From sequence record OZ335964.1: a DNA stretch of 64,000 nt, one strand, 5' to 3'. The position numbers and the translations under genes are program-made. The DNA comes from a phage. Every line of letters starts with the position of its first letter. The first letter of the stretch is position 1. Positions 23,079-63,494 of the stretch are shown piece after piece. The notes below the pieces were generated by a model. It was not told where the DNA came from and did not search any database. It saw nothing but the letters and a program-made list of their open reading frames with translations.

Positions 23079-25217
23079 TTAAGGATTTCGGCCAGGGTAA
23101 TGCTTAAATCGACCGTAACCAGTTTCAATGCTCATATCTCGTTGACGCACAATCGCCCAATAACCGTTGCAGGAATCTTGAAGATATAGATCCTTACCTT
23201 TTAGGAACTCATTAAAAATAGTGATCTGCCAATCATAATAGACCGCATCAGCAAGACTACCCATCCAACCGTGCGGATCTTCCATCAGTTCGACAAGTTC
23301 ATCAATTACCCAATATGGACAAGGGCTAAATTTACCCTTACTAAAATCGCTGAACATAGTAACGATCTTGACTTCCGGTCGAGGCTGATCGGGAATATCT
23401 GGACGTTTGTTAACTACGACTTGCACATATTTTGTGTAGCCTACAATTTCACCTTCATCTAAGTTAGTGTTATTGTTTTTGTCGGCAAATGCAACAAATT
23501 TGTAAACACCAGAATCATTTAATGTTGCATTAGCTTTACGATATACCGGAACACTGGAATCTGCAATAGGTAATTTAATACCACTTTTACTAAATTCATA
23601 GGTCGGCACATAGTTAGATGGCGGTTTAATCATGGTTGCTTCCAGCACCAACGGATCACCCTCAGTAATTTGCACCGGATGCGGACCGTCAAATTCCATA
23701 TTAGGAATTACTTCAACTTTATAGGTTGCACGTCCTGCAATATCATATCCGGTATGCGCACTATGAGGATCTCGGCTAGGACTATCGCGATATTCATGCG
23801 ACCAGATACCATTATGTTCTTTATCCGCCGCATCAGTGATCTTATATTCTTTCGTTTCAATCGGCAATTCTGTTACAAGAACATCGTTTTTCAAAATTGC
23901 TAACGAACGAGTTTGAGTCGGATCATTACTTGCTGGAGGTTCTGGATCAACAATTTTAATAACAATAGGTTCCCCAACCTCAATACCGCTATAATCATGC
24001 TCGACGTCATAGATATCTAACATACGGCGATCATAAAATAACGGGCGAGAAGTTGGAGTTCTCTGCGGATCATCATCACGCGCAGGAGCTACCAACAATT
24101 GCAGGGCTACACTATTATCATATTGCAATTTCTCAAGACTAATACGGTCATAACCAGGATCACCATATTTCTTGCTTTGTAATTGCGTACCACCTAACAT
24201 CCACGTAAAGTAGACATTATTTGTTAATAAACCATAATGTCGGTTCCATGAATTATCAACAGGGGAAACTGGCATATCAATACTAACAGAAGACCCAGAA
24301 GGATAACGAAATTCAATAGCAGAAAAATCTCGGCTAAAAAATTCGTTTTCCTTGACGTTAACGCGGAATCGATGGCGCTGACCTTCCAGATACGATTCAC
24401 TACTACCAGGACCATTTTCAACCTTATAGGAACGAATACAAGCGACATAATCACCTGCATCTGCTTCGGTAGCATGTTTCGTCACATATAAAGTTTTATT
24501 CTTTGATTCATAAACCAAAGTACCATCGCCACGTTCCAGACGATAACGAACTATGGTATGTTCAGCGTCATTTGGGGCATCGTCTTCTACAGTATAATAG
24601 GCAGGTGCATATTTTTGTACATTGAATACAGCTAAATTTTCTCGAATTGTTGCTGTAAACGGATATACAAATTTAACATCACCTGTTTCGTCGCTTAATT
24701 CCATTCGATAAAGACCGGAAAATTCAGGCCATGCGAATTTTGCAATTTTAAATTCACGATGGTCCAATCCCAAATCACCATCTACGGAATCAACTAGACC
24801 ATTATTATAATACAAGTCAACAGAGATATTAGCAGGAATATTACTACGAAAAACAATTTTCGCTTTAAGTTCATCACCAATATTAAATGATGTCGGAGGA
24901 TATACATGTTCAACATATGGATTATCAAATAACTTAAATGTAAAGTTTTCCGTGCCAATATCGATAGAATCACCACTAAATGATGTGTCGCCTAGCGCAT
25001 AACCTCGAACGTTTACAGACCATCCGGTAACATCGTCTTCTTTAACGGAATCCAATGTAAATGTCGGAGAGGCACTTGTTGCTATAATCTGGTCATTTTT
25101 CTTCCAGACATAACCTTTTTTCGGTTTTGTTGAATCAGGGCTTTCATCAACAATACAGCAGCTAAAATCGTGCGGCATCCAAATCATATTATTGACCGTG
25201 GTGTTTACTACTGCCAT
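23079..25217 (-). CDS. large protein with Ig-like domain signatures (possible virion decoration or adhesin)
   Basis: 712 aa; DxGxYxC-type Ig motifs (EADAGDYVACI, LNDSGVYKFVAF); strong AGGAGGATTC RBS; own terminator. Confidence 0.55.
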   Translation of the reverse strand: MAVVNTTVNNMIWMPHDFSCCIVDESPDSTKPKKGYVWKKNDQIIATSASPTFTLDSVKEDDVTGWSVNVRGYALGDTSFSGDSIDIGTENFTFKLFDNPYVEHVYPPTSFNIGDELKAKIVFRSNIPANISVDLYYNNGLVDSVDGDLGLDHREFKIAKFAWPEFSGLYRMELSDETGDVKFVYPFTATIRENLAVFNVQKYAPAYYTVEDDAPNDAEHTIVRYRLERGDGTLVYESKNKTLYVTKHATEADAGDYVACIRSYKVENGPGSSESYLEGQRHRFRVNVKENEFFSRDFSAIEFRYPSGSSVSIDMPVSPVDNSWNRHYGLLTNNVYFTWMLGGTQLQSKKYGDPGYDRISLEKLQYDNSVALQLLVAPARDDDPQRTPTSRPLFYDRRMLDIYDVEHDYSGIEVGEPIVIKIVDPEPPASNDPTQTRSLAILKNDVLVTELPIETKEYKITDAADKEHNGIWSHEYRDSPSRDPHSAHTGYDIAGRATYKVEVIPNMEFDGPHPVQITEGDPLVLEATMIKPPSNYVPTYEFSKSGIKLPIADSSVPVYRKANATLNDSGVYKFVAFADKNNNTNLDEGEIVGYTKYVQVVVNKRPDIPDQPRPEVKIVTMFSDFSKGKFSPCPYWVIDELVELMEDPHGWMGSLADAVYYDWQITIFNEFLKGKDLYLQDSCNGYWAIVRQRDMSIETGYGRFKHYPGRNP

Positions 25218-39194: not shown

Positions 39195-39785
39195 TTACTT
39201 TCTAAAAGCAGGGTGCATAGCTTTAATACCTTCCACCCGCTGACGATCCGCCGCCTGAATTGCAGGGCGAGGAACGATCAGTTGACCATCACGTTCAATG
39301 CTCATTGTTTTAAAGGGAAGAATTGCAGTACACACCAGAGATTCATGCATATCATCGGTGTATGTTAACTCAAGTTCCCCCAATTGTGAACACCAACAAC
39401 CATAAAAGTTAAAAGTGCACACAATGTTACGGCGTTCGTTGTCCATCATGTGAACTTGAACGGCTTCCGGCATTGAATCCTTCCACGCAGTGGAGTTACC
39501 GTTATTGTAGTCTACTATAGAAAGCATCCATGTGTAAAGGTTTAGATAGCTTTCTAGATGTTCATCGACAATAAACCGAACGACCAACGGGTCAAACTCC
39601 ACATGACTAGACGGATAATCAGCGACCGCCAAACCATATTGACCAGCAACTTGCTTAGTCGGTGGAATGGTTATAGCCGGAAGTGTAACACCTTGACAGT
39701 TTAAAGTAAAGCCTTTTGTTAGCTGTCCATCTGGAATATTGATCTGCCAGTTGCTAGGGTTAGCATAGTTAAAGAGATTAGACAT
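39195..39785 (-). CDS. 3: tail completion / sheath stabiliser gp3
   Basis: 196 aa; position between gp1 and gp2 as in T4. Confidence 0.7.
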   Translation of the reverse strand: MSNLFNYANPSNWQINIPDGQLTKGFTLNCQGVTLPAITIPPTKQVAGQYGLAVADYPSSHVEFDPLVVRFIVDEHLESYLNLYTWMLSIVDYNNGNSTAWKDSMPEAVQVHMMDNERRNIVCTFNFYGCWCSQLGELELTYTDDMHESLVCTAILPFKTMSIERDGQLIVPRPAIQAADRQRVEGIKAMHPAFRK

Positions 39786-39974
39786 TACTGATTCCTCAAA
39801 TGAAAATATTTATTAACAATTGTCGCTTCGCGACGTGCCGTAGGCACTGACTACTTTTTAACCGAAACAAATTTTTATTATTCTAAAGATCTTTCTTCGT
39901 TTTGGTTATGTTTTAACCAATAACTATATTTTTATACAGTAATAAATAAAACGGGTACTATACGAGGACTTCTT

Positions 39975-40229
39975 ATGACAGAAGACATTTTGTTAAAACT
40001 CTATGATCGTTTGGATAACGAATTAGCAACATTGCGGGGTGAAGTTCTCTATTTGTCTAAATGCAATACAGATCTGCTTAAGCAGATTGCAGAAAGGGAT
40101 GATCAAATAAAATCCCTTTCAGGTGCATTACGTGATCGCGACAAGGCATTAGAGATTTTACAGCGTGTTACCAATAAGGAAGAATTAAAAGACTTCTTAC
40201 ATGGTTATGCTCATGCTATCGATCTATAA
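39975..40229 (+). CDS. hypothetical coiled-coil protein
   Basis: 84 aa plus-strand ORF with ACGAGGAC RBS, convergent with the Zn-ribbon nuclease gene; shared terminator hairpin. Confidence 0.45.
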   Translation: MTEDILLKLYDRLDNELATLRGEVLYLSKCNTDLLKQIAERDDQIKSLSGALRDRDKALEILQRVTNKEELKDFLHGYAHAIDL

Positions 40230-40258
40230 TAAAAAAGCCCGTCAATGACGGGCTTAAT
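40229..40258. terminator. bidirectional terminator hairpin between convergent genes
   Basis: AGCCCGUCA..ACGGGCU hairpin; strong U-run on minus side, weaker on plus side. Confidence 0.55.
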
Positions 40259-40259
40259 G

Positions 40260-41402
40260 TTAACTATTGATCATATCAATGACGTTTTGTAGCTCTGATA
40301 TGGATAGCGTTTCTGTATATCCATCGGGCATATCTTCTTTACTAACATAGAAACCTTTATACTTTTTCTTTATTGCACATTCCATAGAAAGAGCATCATC
40401 ACCGTTATCGTATTTTTTATAAAATGTCAACTCATGACGAAATATAGATTTTGAAGATTGGTTTTGTATTCTTTTTATTAATCTGTTGTTGGTTATACCA
40501 AATTTTATAGCAACCGCAACATCTTCTTTGTATAAAGTTTGTACATAAATGTATGCAGGTTTATTCCTCTTAAATCCATGATTGCTACACATAGGGCAAC
40601 CGCTATTTTTTGATACGTAGTCTCCTAAGTTTGGCGTAAATTCATGTCCGCTACTACAACGCATTACCAATTTTGTTTTTAGCATTCCTCTATACTCACC
40701 GCCAACAAAATCAACAAATGTATCACCTTTATCAATCGCCTTATCTGTTATTTCCTTTACTACTTGCTCAGTTGACTTCTTGTTTTTACCTGAACATAGT
40801 TTACATCTAGATCCATTAACTAAAAACGAGTGACCAGATGCAGTATATTCATGTCCATTAGGACATTTAACTAAGATATTTCTTTCATAAAAATCTTTAT
40901 AATCAGACACATAGCCAATAACTTCGTGGTCTTTTTGGGCATTCCTCATCTCTGTTAGCAACTCTTCGCTATTCCAGCGTTTACCCTTAACGCAGAGACA
41001 ACCATGACCTTGATAAAGATATATAAATTTCTTAGTAAAGTTTTTGTTACAGTCAGGGCAGTGCATTAGTAATTCTGTCATTTGACCTGTATACCCTTTA
41101 GGAATATCGATCAATGTGTATTTTCCGCATATTGTCTTTAATGCATCATCTATTCTTTCTTTGGTCCAGCGTAAGCGACCAGTGCATTCATGACATTTTA
41201 CACCCAGTCTAAGAGTATCTAAACTAAATATAGTTGACGTATGTCCTTTATCACATTTTAACTTAAATCTAGTATCCTTTGCGTTGGTGTATTCTCCAAC
41301 TAGACCATACCATTCATAACCACATGGGATATGTTCTTTTACCTTCTCTAGATATACACCGAACGGTCTAGGAACTGAATTAGGTTTTCTTTCTTTAGTC
41401 AT
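40260..41402 (-). CDS. multi-zinc-ribbon protein with C-terminal GIY-YIG-like (T5orf172-type) nuclease domain; probable free-standing homing-endonuclease-like gene
   Basis: 380 aa; four about 45 aa Cys modules (CDKGH..CHEC, CPDC, CPNGH..CKLC, CSSGH..CPMC) then KPAYIYVQ...KFGITNNRLIKR; inserted between gp3 and gp2. Confidence 0.5.
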   Translation of the reverse strand: MTKERKPNSVPRPFGVYLEKVKEHIPCGYEWYGLVGEYTNAKDTRFKLKCDKGHTSTIFSLDTLRLGVKCHECTGRLRWTKERIDDALKTICGKYTLIDIPKGYTGQMTELLMHCPDCNKNFTKKFIYLYQGHGCLCVKGKRWNSEELLTEMRNAQKDHEVIGYVSDYKDFYERNILVKCPNGHEYTASGHSFLVNGSRCKLCSGKNKKSTEQVVKEITDKAIDKGDTFVDFVGGEYRGMLKTKLVMRCSSGHEFTPNLGDYVSKNSGCPMCSNHGFKRNKPAYIYVQTLYKEDVAVAIKFGITNNRLIKRIQNQSSKSIFRHELTFYKKYDNGDDALSMECAIKKKYKGFYVSKEDMPDGYTETLSISELQNVIDMINS

Positions 41403-41457
41403 ATTTTATATCCTGTAAATTAAAGCGCCGTCACCAGCGGCGCTATTTTTATAATCA

Positions 41458-42279
41458 TTAAAACAATTTCCACACCTTACGAGCATCATATTTCTTGTCT
41501 TTGCTCATAAACTGGTAGGTCGGAAGATACACGACCGTGCTCCAATCTTTTGGTGCGATCTCAATCAGTTTTGTTTGGATGTGTCCAGGCAAATATGCTT
41601 TGATCATGTGGTCTGCGCCTCTCATACCTTTAACATCACTCCATTTAATTTTTAAACGAGTTTTATTACTAAGAGTAGGTGTACTCGCGTATTGTCGCAA
41701 CAACGCTTCTAAGAACTGCTGGCGAGCTTTAGGTGGCGCATAGTGCAAGTTCAAACCTAGCATAATCTCGTTTCCCGCTTTAGATGTACCAAATCCTAGA
41801 CAGATAATCAAGGGGTATCGGTCAAAGAATGGCAAAGAATCCCGATATTTTGGGTTATACGCATAAGTATAGATCCGTCCCACTTGTGGTTTTACTACCT
41901 GATGACCTTTTACACCCGCCTTGATAGTCTTCATAAACCATTCTTGCGACTTCTCTTTAGGGCGACTCTTTGATACAGCACGCATAGACGCACGAAAATC
42001 ATTAATCATCATCATTGCGCGTTGCTGCTTATTGAGACCCTTTGCGCCTTTCCCTTTTAGTTTTTCAACTTCTATTGCTGTTTTAATTTCGCTGGCATAA
42101 CGAGACATACTTTTAGTGAAAGTTGCATAGGCTATTCCCTTAGAATCTGCAAATGCTTTAGCTGTCATGCCTTTGGCTTTTGCTTTCGCAAATTCTACAC
42201 CCAATTCGACCCACTGTTTAGACTTTCGTTTTTGGGGAGACGGCTTTTCGTCTTCTGTGATTATTTCAAATACGCTCAT
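41458..42279 (-). CDS. 2: DNA end protector protein gp2
   Basis: 273 aa; size and position match T4 gp2. Confidence 0.8.
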   Translation of the reverse strand: MSVFEIITEDEKPSPQKRKSKQWVELGVEFAKAKAKGMTAKAFADSKGIAYATFTKSMSRYASEIKTAIEVEKLKGKGAKGLNKQQRAMMMINDFRASMRAVSKSRPKEKSQEWFMKTIKAGVKGHQVVKPQVGRIYTYAYNPKYRDSLPFFDRYPLIICLGFGTSKAGNEIMLGLNLHYAPPKARQQFLEALLRQYASTPTLSNKTRLKIKWSDVKGMRGADHMIKAYLPGHIQTKLIEIAPKDWSTVVYLPTYQFMSKDKKYDARKVWKLF

Positions 42280-42290
42280 AATATTATCCT

Positions 42291-42764
42291 CTATTTGTTA
42301 AGCCCTTTAAAGCCAAATACTTTCTTTAATGCATGTTCGGTGATGATCTTAAACTCCATGTTATGCTTTTGGCATAATTTCACGGCAGCTAACCATTTTT
42401 CAGTATTTTTTGTGTACGTCCATACTTCATGCATATATCGTTGCTTTGTCTTTGCGGTCATTCTTTTTGGCTTTTCCGGTGGCCTTGTCTCTTTAGCTGG
42501 TTTAACTTCCCATAAATGCTCCTTGCCATCATCAAACTTAACGTAAAAATCCATAAAGTATCTGTGTCTTTTTCCGTCTGTTGATGACTCATAAGGAATT
42601 ACTACGGTCTCAGATCCCCATTTTGCAACTCTAGGATTGCGGTCTAGCCACTGCATGATCCATCTTTCCCAGCTTGAACGGTATGTGATCTTACGTATAT
42701 CCCCTTTATACTTTTCCTTATTCTCAGGAACATACTTACCCTTATAAGTGTTAGATCCTCCCAT
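42291..42764 (-). CDS. 4: head completion protein gp4
   Basis: 157 aa; divergent from gp53 as in T4. Confidence 0.8.
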   Translation of the reverse strand: MGGSNTYKGKYVPENKEKYKGDIRKITYRSSWERWIMQWLDRNPRVAKWGSETVVIPYESSTDGKRHRYFMDFYVKFDDGKEHLWEVKPAKETRPPEKPKRMTAKTKQRYMHEVWTYTKNTEKWLAAVKLCQKHNMEFKIITEHALKKVFGFKGLNK

Positions 42765-42779
42765 TTTAGCACCCTTTAT

Positions 42780-42787
42780 TATAAATA
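42780..42787 (+). promoter_or_regulatory. T4-type late promoter TATAAATA (upstream of gp53)
   Basis: exact TATAAATA 33 nt upstream of gp53 ATG. Confidence 0.6.
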
Positions 42788-42819
42788 CATAATACTATTT
42801 ATCAATTGAGGGTGCTAAA

Positions 42820-56938: not shown

Positions 56939-58339
56939 ATGGCAAACAATACTATTAACCATGTAAAAGACGATGCTCAATACGTCAAGTTTAACCCTGT
57001 AAATGATTGGCCTCAAAGCATTACCAACGTACAAGCGGCTTTAGCCGCTATTAACGGCTTTGCCGTAAATGGATTACCGGACGCTACGGAAGATACAGCC
57101 GGGATCGCTGCAATCGCAACTCAGGAAGAAGTAAACGACGGTACAGTAGACAATAAGATCGTGACTCCAAAAACACTGGCTGTTAAAATGTCACGTCCAG
57201 ATGCCACAAAAGAAGTAAAGGGTATCACCCGATTTGCCACGATGGAAGAATCGCTGCAAGAGAGCAACGAGAACATGGCAATCGGTCCAGACACACTAAA
57301 CCATTACTTCACCACTAAAAAGGCGTCAGAGAGCGTTCAGGGGACTATTAAGATATGTTCTCTTGAGGCAGCAAAGATTGGCAGTGATGACACAATGGCA
57401 GTAACACCGAAAAAGATGCACACTGCTATTGCACAGATTGTACCGGGATTAATTCCAGATCAAAACACAGCAACCGAAAGCGCACAAGGTTTAGTTCAGT
57501 TAGCAACCAATGCGCAAGTTTTACAAGGCCAGATTCGAGAAGGTTTTGCAATTAGCCCTTATGCATTTGCAAATGCTCGCGCCAATGAGAATCAGGCGGG
57601 TACTGTTAAGATCGCCAACCAGTCACAGATGAATGCTGGTTCAGATGATACTGTAGTTGTTTCTGCTAAGAAGTTTGCAAGCACTAAGGCAACAACGTCT
57701 CAATACGGTATTGTTAAACTACGAGACACCGTAGGAAGTGAGGCTAACGCTGCACTATCAGCAAATGCTAAGGTTCTTCCTAGCACTGGCGGTACGGTAA
57801 GCGGAAACGTCTATAAAGGTTCTAACTCAGACGGCAACCAGTTTGTTACTAAAAATGAATTAGCGAATCACGCAATGCCAATTGGTGGTATTATCCTTTC
57901 TGGATTCAATGCTGATCGCGGTGACTTTCTGATCTGTAATGGTCGTTCACTGAATAAAAATCAATATCCGCAATTATTTTCTGCGATTGGTTATACCTTT
58001 GGTGGTTCAGGTAACAATTTTAACCTTCCTGATATGCGTGGTTTAGTTGCTCGTGGTTGCGATCATGGAAGAAACTTTGATCCAGGCCGTCGATTTGGTT
58101 CTTATCAAGAAGACGCAATGCAGAGAATTACTGGTAAATTCCCTGTAGCTGACCGCTGGCGCGGTTGGTATGGTGGCGCATTTACTGCACAGCGCGGTCA
58201 ATGGAGCACGAACTATAAAAACGGTGGGGGTGATGATTGGGGTTCTACTGTTAACTTTGACTCAGGAAGATCCGTAAGAACGGCTAACGAGACTCGCGTC
58301 AAGAGTCTGGCATTAAACTACATCATAAGGGTGCGCTAA
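56939..58339 (+). CDS. 12: short tail fibre protein gp12
   Basis: MANNTINHV...YVKF...VQAALAAIN..VNGLPDA and C-terminal LPDMRGLVARG...LNYIIRV match remembered T4 gp12. Confidence 0.9.
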   Translation: MANNTINHVKDDAQYVKFNPVNDWPQSITNVQAALAAINGFAVNGLPDATEDTAGIAAIATQEEVNDGTVDNKIVTPKTLAVKMSRPDATKEVKGITRFATMEESLQESNENMAIGPDTLNHYFTTKKASESVQGTIKICSLEAAKIGSDDTMAVTPKKMHTAIAQIVPGLIPDQNTATESAQGLVQLATNAQVLQGQIREGFAISPYAFANARANENQAGTVKIANQSQMNAGSDDTVVVSAKKFASTKATTSQYGIVKLRDTVGSEANAALSANAKVLPSTGGTVSGNVYKGSNSDGNQFVTKNELANHAMPIGGIILSGFNADRGDFLICNGRSLNKNQYPQLFSAIGYTFGGSGNNFNLPDMRGLVARGCDHGRNFDPGRRFGSYQEDAMQRITGKFPVADRWRGWYGGAFTAQRGQWSTNYKNGGGDDWGSTVNFDSGRSVRTANETRVKSLALNYIIRVR

Positions 58340-60108
58340 TGATCGAACAATTAAACATTCGTAACATTCCTAACGTTGATGGTGTACCGGGCGAAGGCCA
58401 ACACTCAATCATGTGGATGAAAAATGGTGAATGTTTAAGCGCAGCAACTACCCAGACTGGTCATGACGGTACGCTTAACCGCGTACCTTATGCTATTCAG
58501 GAAAACGTTGTTCGCTTAGACGAAAACGCTAAAACAACTAAGACAAAAATTAATGAGATCGTAACTGCCGTTAATGACATTAAAACGACTTTAGGTGCAA
58601 TCGGTGACGGTAGCGTTATTGATATTGTAAACCAAACAATCGAACATGTCAATGCAGTCGAGGAAAACTTAGGAGAAACCGCAAGAACTCTCCAGACTGC
58701 CGTAACTGGTCTGGAAGGTGTTCAAATCAAGATCGGTGTTCGTCCAGCAGCAGATCCGAGCACACGAACGATCTATGATGATATTTCCTTCATTAAACAG
58801 GAGATGGGTGCATATCCGGGATTTAACATCAACGGACAGCCGGAAGCAGATAACTCCGGTTCTGGTATGAAATATCGTTTAATGCAGAATACAGCAGCAT
58901 TAAACAACCACGGTCAACGAATCTCCCAATTAGAAAGCGATTGGCAAGATTCTGATGTGGGCGATCTGACCGAGAAGGTAAACAAATTTCGTAGCGAACT
59001 AGGCGACACTTCCCTAGCCACACAGGATAATGTTTATCTTCGCTTGCGTACCAATACCCGCAATATTGCTAACTTATCAAATGAAGTCTTAGAAGTCAAG
59101 AAAGCAATTTTATTCGATGCGGTTCCTGATATCGGGACGAAAGTAACAAACCTTACTGCAAACTTTGACCGTTTAGACAGTGAAGTCAACGGCGTAGATT
59201 CTGGTATTCGTCCGCGACTGACGGCAATCGAAAATAAAATTGGCAATCCTCAAGCCGCAGGAAGTCTTGATTATCGTTTAACTAATCAGGAACGAGAATT
59301 TAATGACCTGAAAGTTACAGTTGGTGTTAGTGGCGCAGATGGCCTACGCGGTGAAGTTGCACGGTTGACTAACCAGATCGGGACCGACGTTGATCGTCAT
59401 ACTATCGCCGGACGAATCAAGATTATCGAAAACACACAAGGCCGTTTAGAAGCAAGTGTCCAGGACATTGAGCAAATGGTAGGCAATGCGCAATCCGGTA
59501 TTGTCGCTGGTGTGATGAAACTGTCAACTGATATGTATGGTGATCCACAAGGCGCTGATCAGTTTACTCAAGATGGTATTGTGAAAACTGTCAAGGCGAT
59601 CCAAAAATCTGATGCTGGTAAAGTCTCCGATGTTCCTGATGATGGGTATCATTATCTGCGTAAACACGGTGAATGGGTACAAGTGGCATATGCGGCGGGG
59701 GCATTCAAAAACACTACCGATATTACACTAGAACTTGATGCACAAGACACATACAAGGGTATTCCTTTGACGGACATGACCGCAGAAGTTCCGGTACGTC
59801 AGATGGTTAAAAGCGATTCGCTGGTTACTGTACAGGATAAAGGTTTATTCCGTTGTGTATTCCGCACATCGATTCACGCACAGCATAATGCTACCTTCGT
59901 GGTCGGTATTTTCAAAAACGGGCAAATTGTGCACGAGGTAAGAAATGGTCATTATGGCACTGATGAATTGACCAGCTATTCCACCAGTGCATTCCTAAAT
60001 ATTGAAAATGGCGATAATATAGATATTCGTATTAAGGGTGTATCTGCCGAGGCAGTAGCACAACCAGCACAAATTAAAGAGTTCCTCTTTGGGATTTCTC
60101 CGGTATAA
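58339..60108 (+). CDS. wac: fibritin (whisker, wac) with additional C-terminal domain after the foldon
   Basis: N-terminus VDGVPGEGQHSIMWMKNGE as T4 wac; foldon-like DGYHYLRKHGEWVQV followed by about 125 extra residues. Confidence 0.8.
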   Translation: MIEQLNIRNIPNVDGVPGEGQHSIMWMKNGECLSAATTQTGHDGTLNRVPYAIQENVVRLDENAKTTKTKINEIVTAVNDIKTTLGAIGDGSVIDIVNQTIEHVNAVEENLGETARTLQTAVTGLEGVQIKIGVRPAADPSTRTIYDDISFIKQEMGAYPGFNINGQPEADNSGSGMKYRLMQNTAALNNHGQRISQLESDWQDSDVGDLTEKVNKFRSELGDTSLATQDNVYLRLRTNTRNIANLSNEVLEVKKAILFDAVPDIGTKVTNLTANFDRLDSEVNGVDSGIRPRLTAIENKIGNPQAAGSLDYRLTNQEREFNDLKVTVGVSGADGLRGEVARLTNQIGTDVDRHTIAGRIKIIENTQGRLEASVQDIEQMVGNAQSGIVAGVMKLSTDMYGDPQGADQFTQDGIVKTVKAIQKSDAGKVSDVPDDGYHYLRKHGEWVQVAYAAGAFKNTTDITLELDAQDTYKGIPLTDMTAEVPVRQMVKSDSLVTVQDKGLFRCVFRTSIHAQHNATFVVGIFKNGQIVHEVRNGHYGTDELTSYSTSAFLNIENGDNIDIRIKGVSAEAVAQPAQIKEFLFGISPV

Positions 60109-60114
60109 GAAATT

Positions 60115-60139
60115 AAAGGGGCGTTAAGCCCCTTTTTCG
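60115..60139 (+). terminator. intrinsic terminator after fibritin
   Basis: GGGGC-GUUAA-GCCCC hairpin + UUUUU. Confidence 0.6.
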
Positions 60140-60154
60140 TTTATAGGTGATATT

Positions 60155-61087
60155 ATGTCAGGATATGTAACCAATAACCCTAGAGAATTAAAAGACGCTA
60201 TTCTACGTCGTTTAGGTGCACCAGTAATTAACATCGAGGTGACAGAAGACCAGATTTATGATTGTATTCAACGGGCATTAGAACTCTATGGAGAATATCA
60301 TTTTGATGGCGTGAATAAAGGTTATAAGGTATTTCATGTTAGCGCAGAACAAGCACAACACGGGGTATTTGATTTAAGCGATTCCGGCGTGTATGCGGTA
60401 ACTAAAATAATTCGAACAAACGTAGGAAGTGCTGCCACGATGGATGGTACTGCCGTTTATCCGTGGTTTACTGACTTTCTGTTAGGTTTAGCGGGTGTAA
60501 ACGGTGGATTGGGATCTGGTTGCAGTAAATTCTATGGTCCAAATGCAATGGGTGGTGATTTGGGTTATTTCGCCCAGCTTATGAGCTATCGTGCTACTAT
60601 GCAAAATATGCTTAATCCGCTTCCTGATTACTGGTATAATAGCGCAAACGGACAATTAAAAATTACGGGTAACTTCCGTGCTGGTGATATTATTGTCGCG
60701 GAGGTTTACGTGAAAAGCTATGTGGATGTTCCTGATATGATCGGGGCGGTTGCTGGTTATGCTCACGCTGGCGGGTGCGCTACTATCGGTGGAATCGATG
60801 CAATTTATGATAATCCTACCGCTGGATTAAATGGCATTGTTGCTGGTATGGGTTCTTCTCGTGAAAATAGTCAAGGCGCATATAATAACCGTTGGGTTAA
60901 AGATATGGCGGTTGCATTTACGCGTGAACTTTGGGGACAGATTCTGGCTAAACATCAAGGTCTGCAATTACCCGGTGGTATCACGGTCGATGGGGTTCGA
61001 ATCATCGAAGAAGCACGCGTCGAAATTGAAAGACTACGTGAAGAATTGGAATTGCTCGATCCGCCAGCAGGGATCATTATGGTATGA
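60155..61087 (+). CDS. 13: neck protein gp13
   Basis: 310 aa; synteny wac-13-14-15. Confidence 0.85.
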
Positions 61088-61123
61088 TTAATTGGGGGAA
61101 TATTCCCCCATTTGGAGTAACAC

Positions 61124-61864
61124 ATGTTCAATAATACTCTTTTTGCTCGCTTAGAATCCCAGAAAGACTACGAGAATACACGACAAACCGAGATTCTCAA
61201 TCCCTATGTAAACTTCAACGGTCATACTAATACCCAGACACTGGCTGATGTAATGGTTGCTGAATCTATCCAGATGCGCGGTGTAGAATTGTATTATATC
61301 CCTAGAGAATTTGTCAAACCGGATATGATCTTTGGTGAAGATGTTCAGAGCAAATTTACTAAAGCATGGAAGTTTGCTGCATATATCAATTCATTTGAGG
61401 GATATGAAGGTGCTGGTAATTTCTTCTCTAGTTTCGGGTATCAAGCTAATGATGAATTAACTTTTACGGTGAATCCGAATCTATTCAAACATCAAGTAGA
61501 CGGAAACGAGCCGAAAGCGGGGGATTTGATTTATATTCCTATGAGTAATGATTTATTTGAAATCAACTACTTAGAGCCGTATCAACCGTGGTTCCAGAAT
61601 GGCGCTAATGCTATGCGTAAAATCACAGCAGAGAAATTTGTGTATAGTGGCGAAGAACTTCGACCAGAATTACAGCGTAATGATGGAATTAATGTTGATG
61701 AGTTCGCGGATCTGGATCTTGCACCAATTACCAATCTTGATGGGCTGACAGATATTAACCTTGATCAATATAAAGAAGATAAGCAATTCAGAGACGAAGG
61801 TCGAGACTATATTCAACCGTTTGATCCGATTAATGGCACTGGTTCTCCTTTCGCCGATTTTTGA
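61124..61864 (+). CDS. 14: neck protein gp14
   Basis: 246 aa; synteny. Confidence 0.85.
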
Positions 61865-61904: not shown

Positions 61905-62660
61905 ATGAAAAACTATTATCTATACGAAATAAAGAACAATATAAATGGTAAGATATATGTTGGCATTCGTGGGTATGATGGTGACATAAGTCAAGATCCT
62001 TATATGGGTAGTGGATTGACTCTTAAGAGGTCTATTAAAAAGAACGGGATAGAAAACTTCACAAAAACAATTCTCAAAACGTTTGACTCATGGAAAGAGG
62101 CAAGGAAAGCAGAAAGAGAAATAGTTACAGAGGAATTTGTAAAAAGAGAAGATACCTATAATGTTTCGGTTGGTGGACAAGGTGGAAATACTCACGCCGG
62201 GATGAGCGAAGAACGAAGAAAACTTGCAAGCGAAAGACACGCAGAAGCAAACCGAAATAGAGTATGGAAGCAAGAATCTAGAGATAAGGTTAGCGCAAGA
62301 TTCAAAGGTCATAAGCTATCACAGAAGCAGATAGACGCGCTAAAGAAGGCAAACACAGGAAGAAAGTTCACAGAAGAACACAAGTTCAAAATAGGTAAAA
62401 CGTGGCGAGGAAAGAAACGACCAGATATAGGAGAGAAGGTTGCGGCAAAATTAACAGGGAGAAAACTACCCCCAGAACATGTGGCAGCAATAACGCAAAA
62501 TACACCGAGAGGAAAACAACACTTTAGGGCAAAAAGATTCTTCATCGACGATATGGAATTTTATATTTTGAGTGATGCAGCTAAAATGTTTGGTATAAGT
62601 TATAAAACGGTTAAAGCTAGACTTCTCTCAGATAAGTTTCCTACATGGAGATATGAATAA
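61905..62660 (+). CDS. GIY-YIG homing endonuclease (Seg-like, free-standing)
   Basis: N-terminal YLYEIKNNINGKIYVGI GIY-YIG motif; Lys/Arg-rich DNA-binding C-terminus; inserted between gp14 and gp15; visibly AGA/AAA-rich codon usage. Confidence 0.8.
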   Translation: MKNYYLYEIKNNINGKIYVGIRGYDGDISQDPYMGSGLTLKRSIKKNGIENFTKTILKTFDSWKEARKAEREIVTEEFVKREDTYNVSVGGQGGNTHAGMSEERRKLASERHAEANRNRVWKQESRDKVSARFKGHKLSQKQIDALKKANTGRKFTEEHKFKIGKTWRGKKRPDIGEKVAAKLTGRKLPPEHVAAITQNTPRGKQHFRAKRFFIDDMEFYILSDAAKMFGISYKTVKARLLSDKFPTWRYE

Positions 62661-63494
62661 ATGTTTTCACATTTTTACAATTCGTCAATTAGACGGTATA
62701 TTGTATTGCTGGGTAATCTATTCTCCGGTGTACAGATTAAAAGGGTGCGTAGCGATGGTGATCGATTCATTAAAGTTCCTATTACCTACGCAAAGAAAGA
62801 AAAATTTATGATGAGTCTGGACAAGTATAATAATATTTCAAGTGAAGAAGATGTAGCAAAGGTAGAAACTATTCTACCGCGTATGTGTCTTTCTTTGATT
62901 GATATGACATACGCCCAGAACTTTAAAACCAATATTGCTAATAAAACAACTCCGAGATATACAGAAAACGGGATAAGAAGTATTACACAATATAATCCGG
63001 TTCCGTATAAATTTACGTTTGAATTGGGGATTTATACGCGTAACGAAGATGATATGTTTCAGATCGTCGAACAAATCCTCCCGTATTTTCAACCACATTT
63101 TAACTGCAAGATAAAAGAATTGCATGGTAATGATGTATGGATTGACCGAGATATTCAGGTTACTATTAGTTCAATCACTCCCGACGAACAGGTAGGCGAA
63201 GATAAGTTTTCTCGTCGCCGTCTGGAATGGACTATTATGTTTGAGTTCATTGGGTTTATCTATCCTCCAGCTACAGACGTTAGAGGTGAAATTAGAACGG
63301 TATATCTAGATTTTCATGCTAATTCTCGTGAATTGAATCCTAGCGGTAATTTTGAATCTGTGGATCATGAGGTGGTAAGTCGAAATGTAGATCAAAGCAA
63401 ATGGGATGGAAATAGTAAAGAATCATATTCTAGTGATATTCCTGTACCAGTTGCACCAACTCCACCGGGTCCACGTATTGTAAGAGAATTTTAA
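62661..63494 (+). CDS. 15: tail sheath stabiliser / completion protein gp15
   Basis: MFSHFYNSSIRRY...KVPITYA...DMFQIVEQILPYFQPHFN...FHAN matches remembered T4 gp15. Confidence 0.9.
   Translation: MFSHFYNSSIRRYIVLLGNLFSGVQIKRVRSDGDRFIKVPITYAKKEKFMMSLDKYNNISSEEDVAKVETILPRMCLSLIDMTYAQNFKTNIANKTTPRYTENGIRSITQYNPVPYKFTFELGIYTRNEDDMFQIVEQILPYFQPHFNCKIKELHGNDVWIDRDIQVTISSITPDEQVGEDKFSRRRLEWTIMFEFIGFIYPPATDVRGEIRTVYLDFHANSRELNPSGNFESVDHEVVSRNVDQSKWDGNSKESYSSDIPVPVAPTPPGPRIVREF

Follow-up and report, generated by a model that had tools for sequence, protein, structure and literature searches.

Gene organization of the gp3-gp2 locus

The 64,000-nucleotide stretch of phage DNA analysed here (sequence record OZ335964.1, one strand; hereafter the window) is Krischvirus DNA, from an RB49-like, 'pseudo-T-even' phage of the Straboviridae that has Escherichia coli as host and is ~98.5% identical to phage JSE. 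A minus-strand gene of 380 codons plus stop (40260-41402), lying between gp3 and gp2, had been described by a sequence-only reading of this DNA as a free-standing, homing-endonuclease-like mobile gene, and is the subject of the present analysis. The gene order at the locus is gp1, gp3 (39195-39785, minus strand), a coiled-coil open reading frame (ORF) of 84 amino acids (aa) on the plus strand (39975-40229), the 380-aa ORF, gp2 (41458-42279, minus strand) and gp4 (42291-42764, minus strand), after which gp53 and gp5 follow in plus-strand orientation. The 380-aa gene stands at the end of the late gp4-gp2 transcription unit and has a GC content of 34.0%, compared with 40.2% for the whole window. 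Its product was matched by PHROG 681 ('endonuclease', 1e-81), while a search of the protein against NCBIfam gave nothing useful. No paralogue was found within the window, and no internal repeat was detected by BLASTP. When a 3.3-kb segment of the locus was compared with other phages, G37-3, JSE, PTE-Eco09 and AV108 matched over its full length at 98.2-98.6% identity; RB49 and most other Krischvirus phages matched over only ~63% of the segment.

Boundaries of the insert and its leader

Pairwise BLAST delimited the insert as 40263-41467 (1205 bp), present in place of 7 bp of RB49. On the minus strand the RB49 junction reads ...AAAGTTTGGAAGGATGCATAA|CATTAAGCCCGTCAATGACGGGC, with the gp2 stop directly against the terminator. 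The window reads ...AAGGTGTGGAAATTGTTTTAA, followed by a 55-bp leader and the 380-codon ORF, whose TAA falls on the same |CATTAAGCCCGTC.... The point of entry of the cassette is just upstream of the terminator on the minus strand, immediately after the gp2 stop. The neighbours are intact: gp2 keeps its full frame of 273 codons, and at the junction its last two codons alone are altered, from DA-stop to LF-stop. The insertion is intergenic, as for a free-standing homing endonuclease gene.

The leader imported with the insert (41403-41457, minus strand) carries a box TATAAAAA at 41453-41446, which matches the T4 late promoter TATAAATA at 7 of 8 positions. It is followed by a hairpin (41444-41424) and then by UUUAAUUU, a terminator-like match, and a Shine-Dalgarno AGGA (41414-41411) lies 8 nt ahead of the ATG. 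Expression would probably be by read-through of this post-gp2 hairpin, or from a weak late-type promoter in the leader. The leader fold (91 nt), tested for sequestration of the ribosome binding site, was no better than that of shuffled sequence (z -1.57), and hence no claim of translational control is made. A sigma-70 promoter scan returned 6 sites against 8.2 expected, that is, no signal.

Resident features of the locus

The 84-aa ORF converges on the 380-aa gene and shares with it a terminator hairpin at 40235-40255, as the sequence-only reading had described. The hairpin, which acts on both strands and lies outside the mobile cassette, has a 9-bp stem with z ~ -5.5 on either strand, and 0 of 200 shuffles were as stable. 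It lies directly 3' of the gp2 stop in RB49, MIZ4, phiS and JK32, and is taken to be the ancestral terminator of gp2 and the 84-aa gene. The same reading regarded the 84-aa ORF as the only plus-strand gene in 40 kb, which fits JSE, where 97 of 97 features in the upstream 39.4 kb are on the minus strand. The 380-aa gene does lie between gp3 and gp2, but it is not what separates them, as the 84-aa gene already does so throughout the genus. The 84-aa gene (PHROG 17832, function unknown, 2e-57) is annotated in RB49, Phi1, ECD7, JK32, MIZ4 and phiS, and its protein is identical in sequence in RB49, Phi1 and JK32.

An AT-rich spacer of 190 bp with two small hairpins and two late-promoter-like boxes had been assigned to the upstream side of the 380-aa gene. 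The hairpins (39822-39834 and 39835-39847) and the boxes, near-matches AATAAATA at 39814-39807 (minus strand) and 39941-39948 (plus strand), are present. In fact the spacer (39786-39974) separates gp3 from the divergently transcribed 84-aa gene, instead of preceding the 380-aa gene. It is 99-100% identical to RB49, and its two boxes are placed, judging from position and strand, to serve gp3 and the 84-aa gene. As a whole the spacer does not fold significantly (z ~ -1.5 to -1.6), and only the two short hairpins are visible. Spacer, 84-aa gene and terminator are 98-100% identical in RB49, a phage without the 380-aa gene. Since they are unchanged in phages lacking the insert, all three are resident features of the genus, and the 84-aa gene is a neighbour and not a part of the element. 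The proposal that the element brought along a regulatory context comprising these features was accordingly dropped; the 55-bp leader would be the only such context that it has, with a putative function. A link of the 84-aa ORF to the element through unusual conservation was also considered and rejected, as gp1, gp3, the spacer and the ORF are 93-100% identical even in JK32.

Predicted zinc modules and nuclease domain of the 380-aa protein

The four Cys modules claimed for the protein were found. They make up a predicted DNA-binding region (40587-41255, minus strand) with helical linkers between the modules, namely C50-x3-H54...C70-x2-C73 (residues 50-73; 41184-41255), C115-x2-C118...C135-x-C137 (residues 115-137; 40992-41060), C180-x3-H184...C200-x2-C203 (residues 180-203; 40794-40865) and C249-x3-H253...C269-x2-C272 (residues 249-272; 40587-40658). 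Pfam CapR (PF21817) matched in 4 stretches with 49.3 bits against a gathering cut-off of 24.2, and the DUF4379 treble clef scored 33.8 bits. With an above-threshold hidden Markov model score and a C/H...C/C ligand set in each of the 4 modules, the protein belongs among the CapR-type zinc-finger proteins, for which zinc and DNA binding are predicted.

For comparison, an alignment was made of 40 homologues drawn from a large protein collection; almost all are encoded on phage-like contigs, and CapR and DUF4379 are present in almost all. CapR was matched by 40 of 41 homologues. The conserved core across the alignment consists of the last two zinc modules and the C-terminal domain: C249, C269 and C272 show no variation, and C180, C200 and C203 almost none. 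Many homologues join an almost identical C-terminal stretch of 70 residues (FDHEIFYELTLQDGQKILELENKIKEAMKGKTSYISKEDMPDGYTETVAPSELSTIMYIVKSFEKELTA) to very different zinc-module arrays, which suggests that DNA-binding arrays have often been shuffled onto a single nuclease module.

The C-terminal domain (residues 276-380; 40263-40577, minus strand) is a predicted nuclease of the GIY-YIG/T5orf172 type. Its motifs are Y286 (in AYIYV), K300-F-G-I-T-N305, R311, E341 and G361-Y-T-E-T365. Residues invariant in the 40 homologues are G276, Y286, K300, G302, T304, R311, G334, E341, K345, K355 and G361-Y-T-E-T365; Y286, the K300-N305 stretch, R311 and E341, the residues of the GIY-YIG motifs, are invariant or nearly so in 40-41 homologues. 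We take them to correspond to the GIY-YIG signature, with the Tyr of strand 1, the 'YIG'-like strand 2, the Arg of helix 1 and the Glu of a later helix, an equation with I-TevI positions that is based on motif order and spacing and on knowledge of the family, and not on residue-level superposition. BLASTP against ICP1 gp130 gave an alignment over residues 40-378 (22% identity, E 1e-19), within which the AYI(Y/F), K(F/V)GI, R, E and DG(Y/F)xET motifs fall. ICP1 gp130, annotated as a putative homing endonuclease, scores above the T5orf172 cut-off (21.2 bits against 20). The 380-aa protein is assigned to T5orf172 by homology, through this above-threshold relative aligned across the nuclease domain.

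Structure prediction gave a similar picture. The full-length AlphaFold model has a predicted local distance difference test score (pLDDT) of 85.9, with 70-92 over the zinc-module region; its predicted template modelling score (pTM) is low (0.42), which a beads-on-a-string arrangement would lead one to expect. The C-terminal domain modelled alone has pLDDT 94.9 and pTM 0.86. The model adopts the alpha/beta fold of GIY-YIG enzymes, a three-stranded antiparallel sheet with flanking helices, and its best matches in the PDB are GIY-YIG enzymes. The C-terminal GIY-YIG-like (T5orf172-type) segment named in the sequence-only reading is thus borne out by the invariant motifs and by these matches.

Comparison of the window with the JSE copy showed 11 synonymous and 2 non-synonymous codon differences (P ~1e-5 for 2 or fewer non-synonymous of 13, with a rough neutral expectation of ~75% non-synonymous). 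This synonymous excess indicates that the ORF has been under purifying selection, as read from the two copies. The ORF is intact in all carriers and retains every family-invariant residue.

The insertion site is polymorphic across Krischvirus

Site occupancy was scored in 58 Krischvirus records, a match span of ~2103 bp being taken as empty. The junctions of RB49, Phi1, ECD7, FL38, JK32, MIZ4, phiS, JSE and AV108 were read by sequence and the rest were scored by match span. The site is empty in ~42 of the 58 records (RB49, JK32, MIZ4 and phiS by sequence; ~38 more by span). The same 380-aa-type gene is present in 5 carrier records, all with 98-99% identity to the window over the locus. Another gene of the family, of 343-350 aa, occupies the identical position in the remaining 11 (Phi1, ECD7 and FL38 read; 8 by span); its product is 27% identical to the 380-aa protein and has a like architecture. 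The site therefore shows a presence/absence polymorphism with a cognate empty allele. The earlier reading had named the presence of the same gene in all relatives, with no empty site, as the outcome that would tell against mobility, and this is not what was seen. A metagenome contig encoding a 98% identical protein has the same genomic context. Literature searches found no paper treating the gp2-terminator junction.

Other states of the locus were also seen. Between gp3 and the 84-aa gene, AV108 (segment 1217-1750) and phiS (segment 918-1451) carry a homing endonuclease gene for a 177-aa protein with HNH_3 and AP2, at an insertion point corresponding to about position 39817 of the window. With three different genes of such kinds around gp3 and gp2 across the genus, the locus is, by annotation and comparison, a homing endonuclease hot spot. 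MIZ4 (segment 1361-1500) has an empty junction but keeps an ECD7-type divergent stretch of ~70 nt at the 3' end of gp2, and MIZ5, kvi and Makalu_001 resemble it by match pattern. The MIZ4 state suggests that the Phi1/ECD7-type gene has been lost precisely, or else that the allele is a resistant one lacking the gene.

A divergent gp2 tract adjoins the insert

Identity to RB49, profiled in steps of 200 nt, is 95.5-100% between 38601 and the insert, which itself is unmatched; identity is then 75-82% over 41401-42000 and returns to 98-99.5% from 42001 on. The 505 bp of gp2 adjoining the insert (41458-41962, minus strand; codons ~106-273) are 58-85% identical to RB49, dense differences starting at 41962, and form a putative co-conversion tract. 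Codons 1-100 of gp2 differ from RB49 by 3 nt, all synonymous, while in codons 101-273 149 of 519 nt differ (28.7%). The 106 differing codons in this part comprise 73 synonymous and 33 non-synonymous ones, and the tract is best described as a diverged but functional imported allele and not as decay. The carrier gp2 allele (at least 97.8% identity) occurs in the 5 carrier records only; all other records have at most 84%. A sharply bounded tract of gp2 confined to carriers is the pattern of a co-conversion tract or a resistant target. The Phi1/ECD7-type gene has its own linked divergent tract at the gp2 3' end, of ~100 bp.

JK32 was considered as a donor of the tract and rejected: its gp2 ends in KLF-stop as in the window, but identity across the tract is ~63-92%. 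In the same phage (segment 2501-3816, about 41458-42800 of the window) the gp2-gp4 module has 62-91% identity to the window, against 98-100% in the flanks on either side. A different gp2-gp4 module between near-identical flanks marks the junction as a general exchange boundary, and gp2 plus gp4 is, on this pattern, an exchangeable cassette in Krischvirus. In JSE (NC_012740; segment 2861-3683) gp2 is annotated at only 747 nt; its length differs by 1 nt from that in the window and the other phages, with loss of the frame, which probably reflects an error of sequencing or else a genuine frameshift.

The 380-aa gene as a probable free-standing homing endonuclease gene

The observations on this gene comprise its domain architecture, the conservation of catalytic motifs, its predicted fold, a site polymorphic for presence and absence, a precisely defined point of insertion and a tract of divergence on one side only. 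Taken together these make it probable that the gene belongs to the free-standing homing endonuclease genes, of the CapR-zinc-finger/T5orf172 (GIY-YIG superfamily) type. The claim of the sequence-only reading that it is a mobile gene of this general kind is supported by the cognate empty sites in most relatives and by the predicted nuclease fold.

How the element would choose its target, cut, home and be expressed we infer as follows. During co-infection of a carrier with a gene-free phage of the RB49 type, the four zinc modules would recognise a long stretch of the empty allele in or close to the gp2 3' end, where the C-terminal GIY-YIG-type domain would then cut. Recombination-dependent replication of the phage would repair the break with the carrier genome as template, so that the gene and the part of gp2 beside it would be copied in (co-conversion). 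The carrier would be immune to its own enzyme because the 3' half of its gp2 differs at ~29% of positions.

Several results weigh against this interpretation. The Pfam T5orf172 model (PF10544) matched residues 284-355 with only 17.3 bits (E 0.0069), under the gathering cut-off of 20, so that the protein does not qualify as a member by its own score; among the homologues, 5 of 41 gave a match at E <= 0.01. In the PDB no meaningful match was obtained by sequence, whether the query was the protein or a 41-sequence profile, and a Foldseek search of the PDB with the full-length model found nothing either. No insert-free phage has the JSE-type gp2 allele, and a donor lineage of the tract was not found. 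All five carrier records are close relatives of the JSE type. For the ICP1 T5orf172 genes homing has not been experimentally verified (PMC10448857), and in the literature from 2024 onward on T5orf172 no demonstration of homing was found.

As all carriers are JSE-like, their distribution would also follow from a single ancient acquisition and vertical descent thereafter, and the main rival explanation is that the gene is of homing origin but now immobile. An ancestor of the JSE lineage would have acquired it once, together with the foreign 3' half of gp2, and it would since have been passed on vertically as a passive or decaying passenger. The 98-99% identity of the 5 carriers to the window over the locus agrees with this, as does the lack of an empty site with a JSE-type gp2 allele and of a second genomic background for the gene. 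A decaying passenger would hardly be expected to keep an intact ORF in every carrier with all the family-invariant residues, or to show the 11:2 synonymous excess. The genome of the window is moreover mosaic relative to JSE, with a 712-aa gene that is absent in JSE and 99.9% identical in JK32, so Krischvirus genomes recombine; and the parallel Phi1/ECD7-type gene at the same site in several backgrounds, together with the scar-like allele of MIZ4, also tells against this rival. An immobile passenger is on balance unlikely.

The gene could instead have been domesticated to serve the phage, as a CapR-like DNA-binding regulator or as an Odn-like nuclease against competitors or satellites. Relatives have been domesticated (the CapR repressor and the anti-satellite nuclease Odn), and the position at the end of a late operon would suit such a role. 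The protein has, however, a complete nuclease domain with conserved catalytic residues, unlike CapR; the gene is dispensable, being missing from most of the genus; and the insertion point with its one-sided divergent tract is typical of a homing element. Domestication, which we judge very unlikely, also overlaps with the homing interpretation, as cutting the allele of a competitor is homing in a mixed infection. Least of all do we expect a zinc-ribbon protein devoid of nuclease activity whose likeness to GIY-YIG enzymes is coincidental. The below-threshold score mentioned above would allow it, but the invariant residues fall on the GIY, YIG, Arg and Glu motif positions, and the homology to a protein that passes the T5orf172 threshold extends over the full length.

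Comparison with known systems

The Seg (GIY-YIG) and Mob (HNH) genes of T4 are free-standing genes located in the intergenic regions between conserved genes, with a hairpin-containing leader. They move when the gene-free allele is cut and repaired by recombination, with co-conversion of flanking markers (marker exclusion). The 380-aa gene, known here from sequence, resembles them as an intergenic free-standing gene with a hairpin-containing leader, and shares the GIY-YIG superfamily fold with Seg. In Seg proteins the GIY-YIG domain is N-terminal and DNA binding is of the I-TevI type, whereas here the nuclease is C-terminal and is preceded by four zinc modules. The SegE_GIY-YIG and I-TevI_DNA-bd Pfam models gave no match in the 380-aa protein. 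Because the domain order is reversed and these matches are lacking, the protein is not placed in the Seg family.

The closest counterparts in position are Phi1 ORF130.1 and the ECD7 gp128 'endonuclease'. These have CapR domains and the same C-terminal motifs, and are inserted at exactly the same point (gp2 stop/terminator) next to a divergent gp2 3' end. They differ in having three clear zinc modules instead of four, a start codon that overlaps the end of gp2 where a 55-bp leader is present here, and a linked gp2 tract of ~100 bp compared with 505 bp.

Putative T5orf172 homing endonucleases with repeated CapR, DUF723 or DUF4379 domains have been described in ICP1 (gp130, gp165, gp174 and others) and in T5-like phages (Barth, Dunham and Seed 2023, PMC10448857); T4 itself is without T5orf172 genes (PMC10448857). 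Like the ICP1 genes, the 380-aa gene encodes tandem N-terminal zinc-finger modules followed by a C-terminal T5orf172-type nuclease, has an essential gene for structure or packaging as its neighbour, lies at a sequence-exchange boundary, and is variably present among close relatives. This exchange-boundary pattern agrees with the title of Barth et al. 2023 (PMC10448857). In contrast to the ICP1 genes, the gene described here resides in a T4-like Straboviridae phage of E. coli, its C-terminal domain belongs to a divergent subfamily below the Pfam threshold, and cultured coliphages offer all three alleles of one site, empty, occupied and alternatively occupied.

CapR, from the PLE satellite of Vibrio cholerae, is a capsid-gene repressor (PMC8096241) and Odn an ICP1 anti-satellite nuclease, the two being domesticated relatives in the family (PMC8096241, PMC8263062, PMC10448857). 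The 380-aa protein shares with CapR the zinc-finger DNA-binding domain that gives Pfam PF21817 its name; CapR, as a domesticated repressor, has no active nuclease role, whereas the 380-aa protein keeps the full nuclease domain. A review of the T4 family from 2010 counted putative homing endonuclease genes in JSE (7), phi1 (2) and RB49 (2), and the 380-aa gene is unnamed there (PMC2993671). In RefSeq the JSE copy is already labelled 'endonuclease'.

Other variable loci in the window

A seg-like GIY-YIG homing endonuclease gene of 251 codons (61905-62660, plus strand) lies between gp14 and gp15 and is absent from RB49. Its product matched Pfam I-TevI_DNA-bd (31.7 bits) and PHROG 314 ('homing endonuclease', 1e-46), and SegE_GIY-YIG was matched too. 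The flanks of this gene (58201-61800 and 62601-63400) are only 73-91% identical to RB49, and are regarded, from the identity profile, as a second and larger co-conversion-like tract over the region of wac, gp13, gp14 and gp15.

The 712-aa ORF (23079-25217, minus strand) lies beside rI.-1 and is a variable accessory gene, absent from RB49 as well as JSE. The protein has no Pfam match and a weak C-terminal PHROG match to Hoc-like head decoration proteins; besides the copy in Shigella phage JK32, it is 73-78% identical in Brandy, UPWr_E1, SSG23 and G2248. The head-completion protein gp4 (42291-42764, minus strand) matched Pfam Tn7_TnsA-like_N, a restriction-endonuclease-like fold, at 4e-21.

Implications

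Genes for endonucleases of the T5orf172/CapR type are abundant in phages, and their homing has so far been inferred. As an element the 380-aa gene is of an ordinary kind for a T4-like phage; what is unusual is the clarity with which the empty, occupied and differently occupied versions of its site appear in relatives. These constitute a natural experiment in easily grown E. coli phages, with an empty site in RB49, the occupant of the JSE-like phages, the rival occupant of Phi1 and ECD7, and the scar-like, resistant empty site of MIZ4, in genomes that are ~98% identical outside the locus. For annotation, it means that calls of 'hypothetical protein' or 'endonuclease' for genes of this sort in Krischvirus should become 'putative T5orf172-type homing endonuclease'.

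A bolder proposal, which we put forward as rather doubtful, is that the gp2-terminator junction is a contested homing site, at which two T5orf172-family endonucleases with different DNA-binding arrays compete and each drags along a different stretch of gp2. If true, the element would drive allelic replacement of the 168 C-terminal codons (33 amino-acid changes) of the essential gp2. The gp2 protein protects DNA ends against RecBCD, and the swapped half could be of adaptive value, for instance by helping the phage to escape host defences that sense or bypass gp2. It would then also be the first tractable system in which homing by a T5orf172 enzyme could be demonstrated, the carriers and the empty-site phages being cultured coliphages. 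The locus provides a concrete case of such an element rewriting part of an essential gene, gp2, and marking a recombination boundary.

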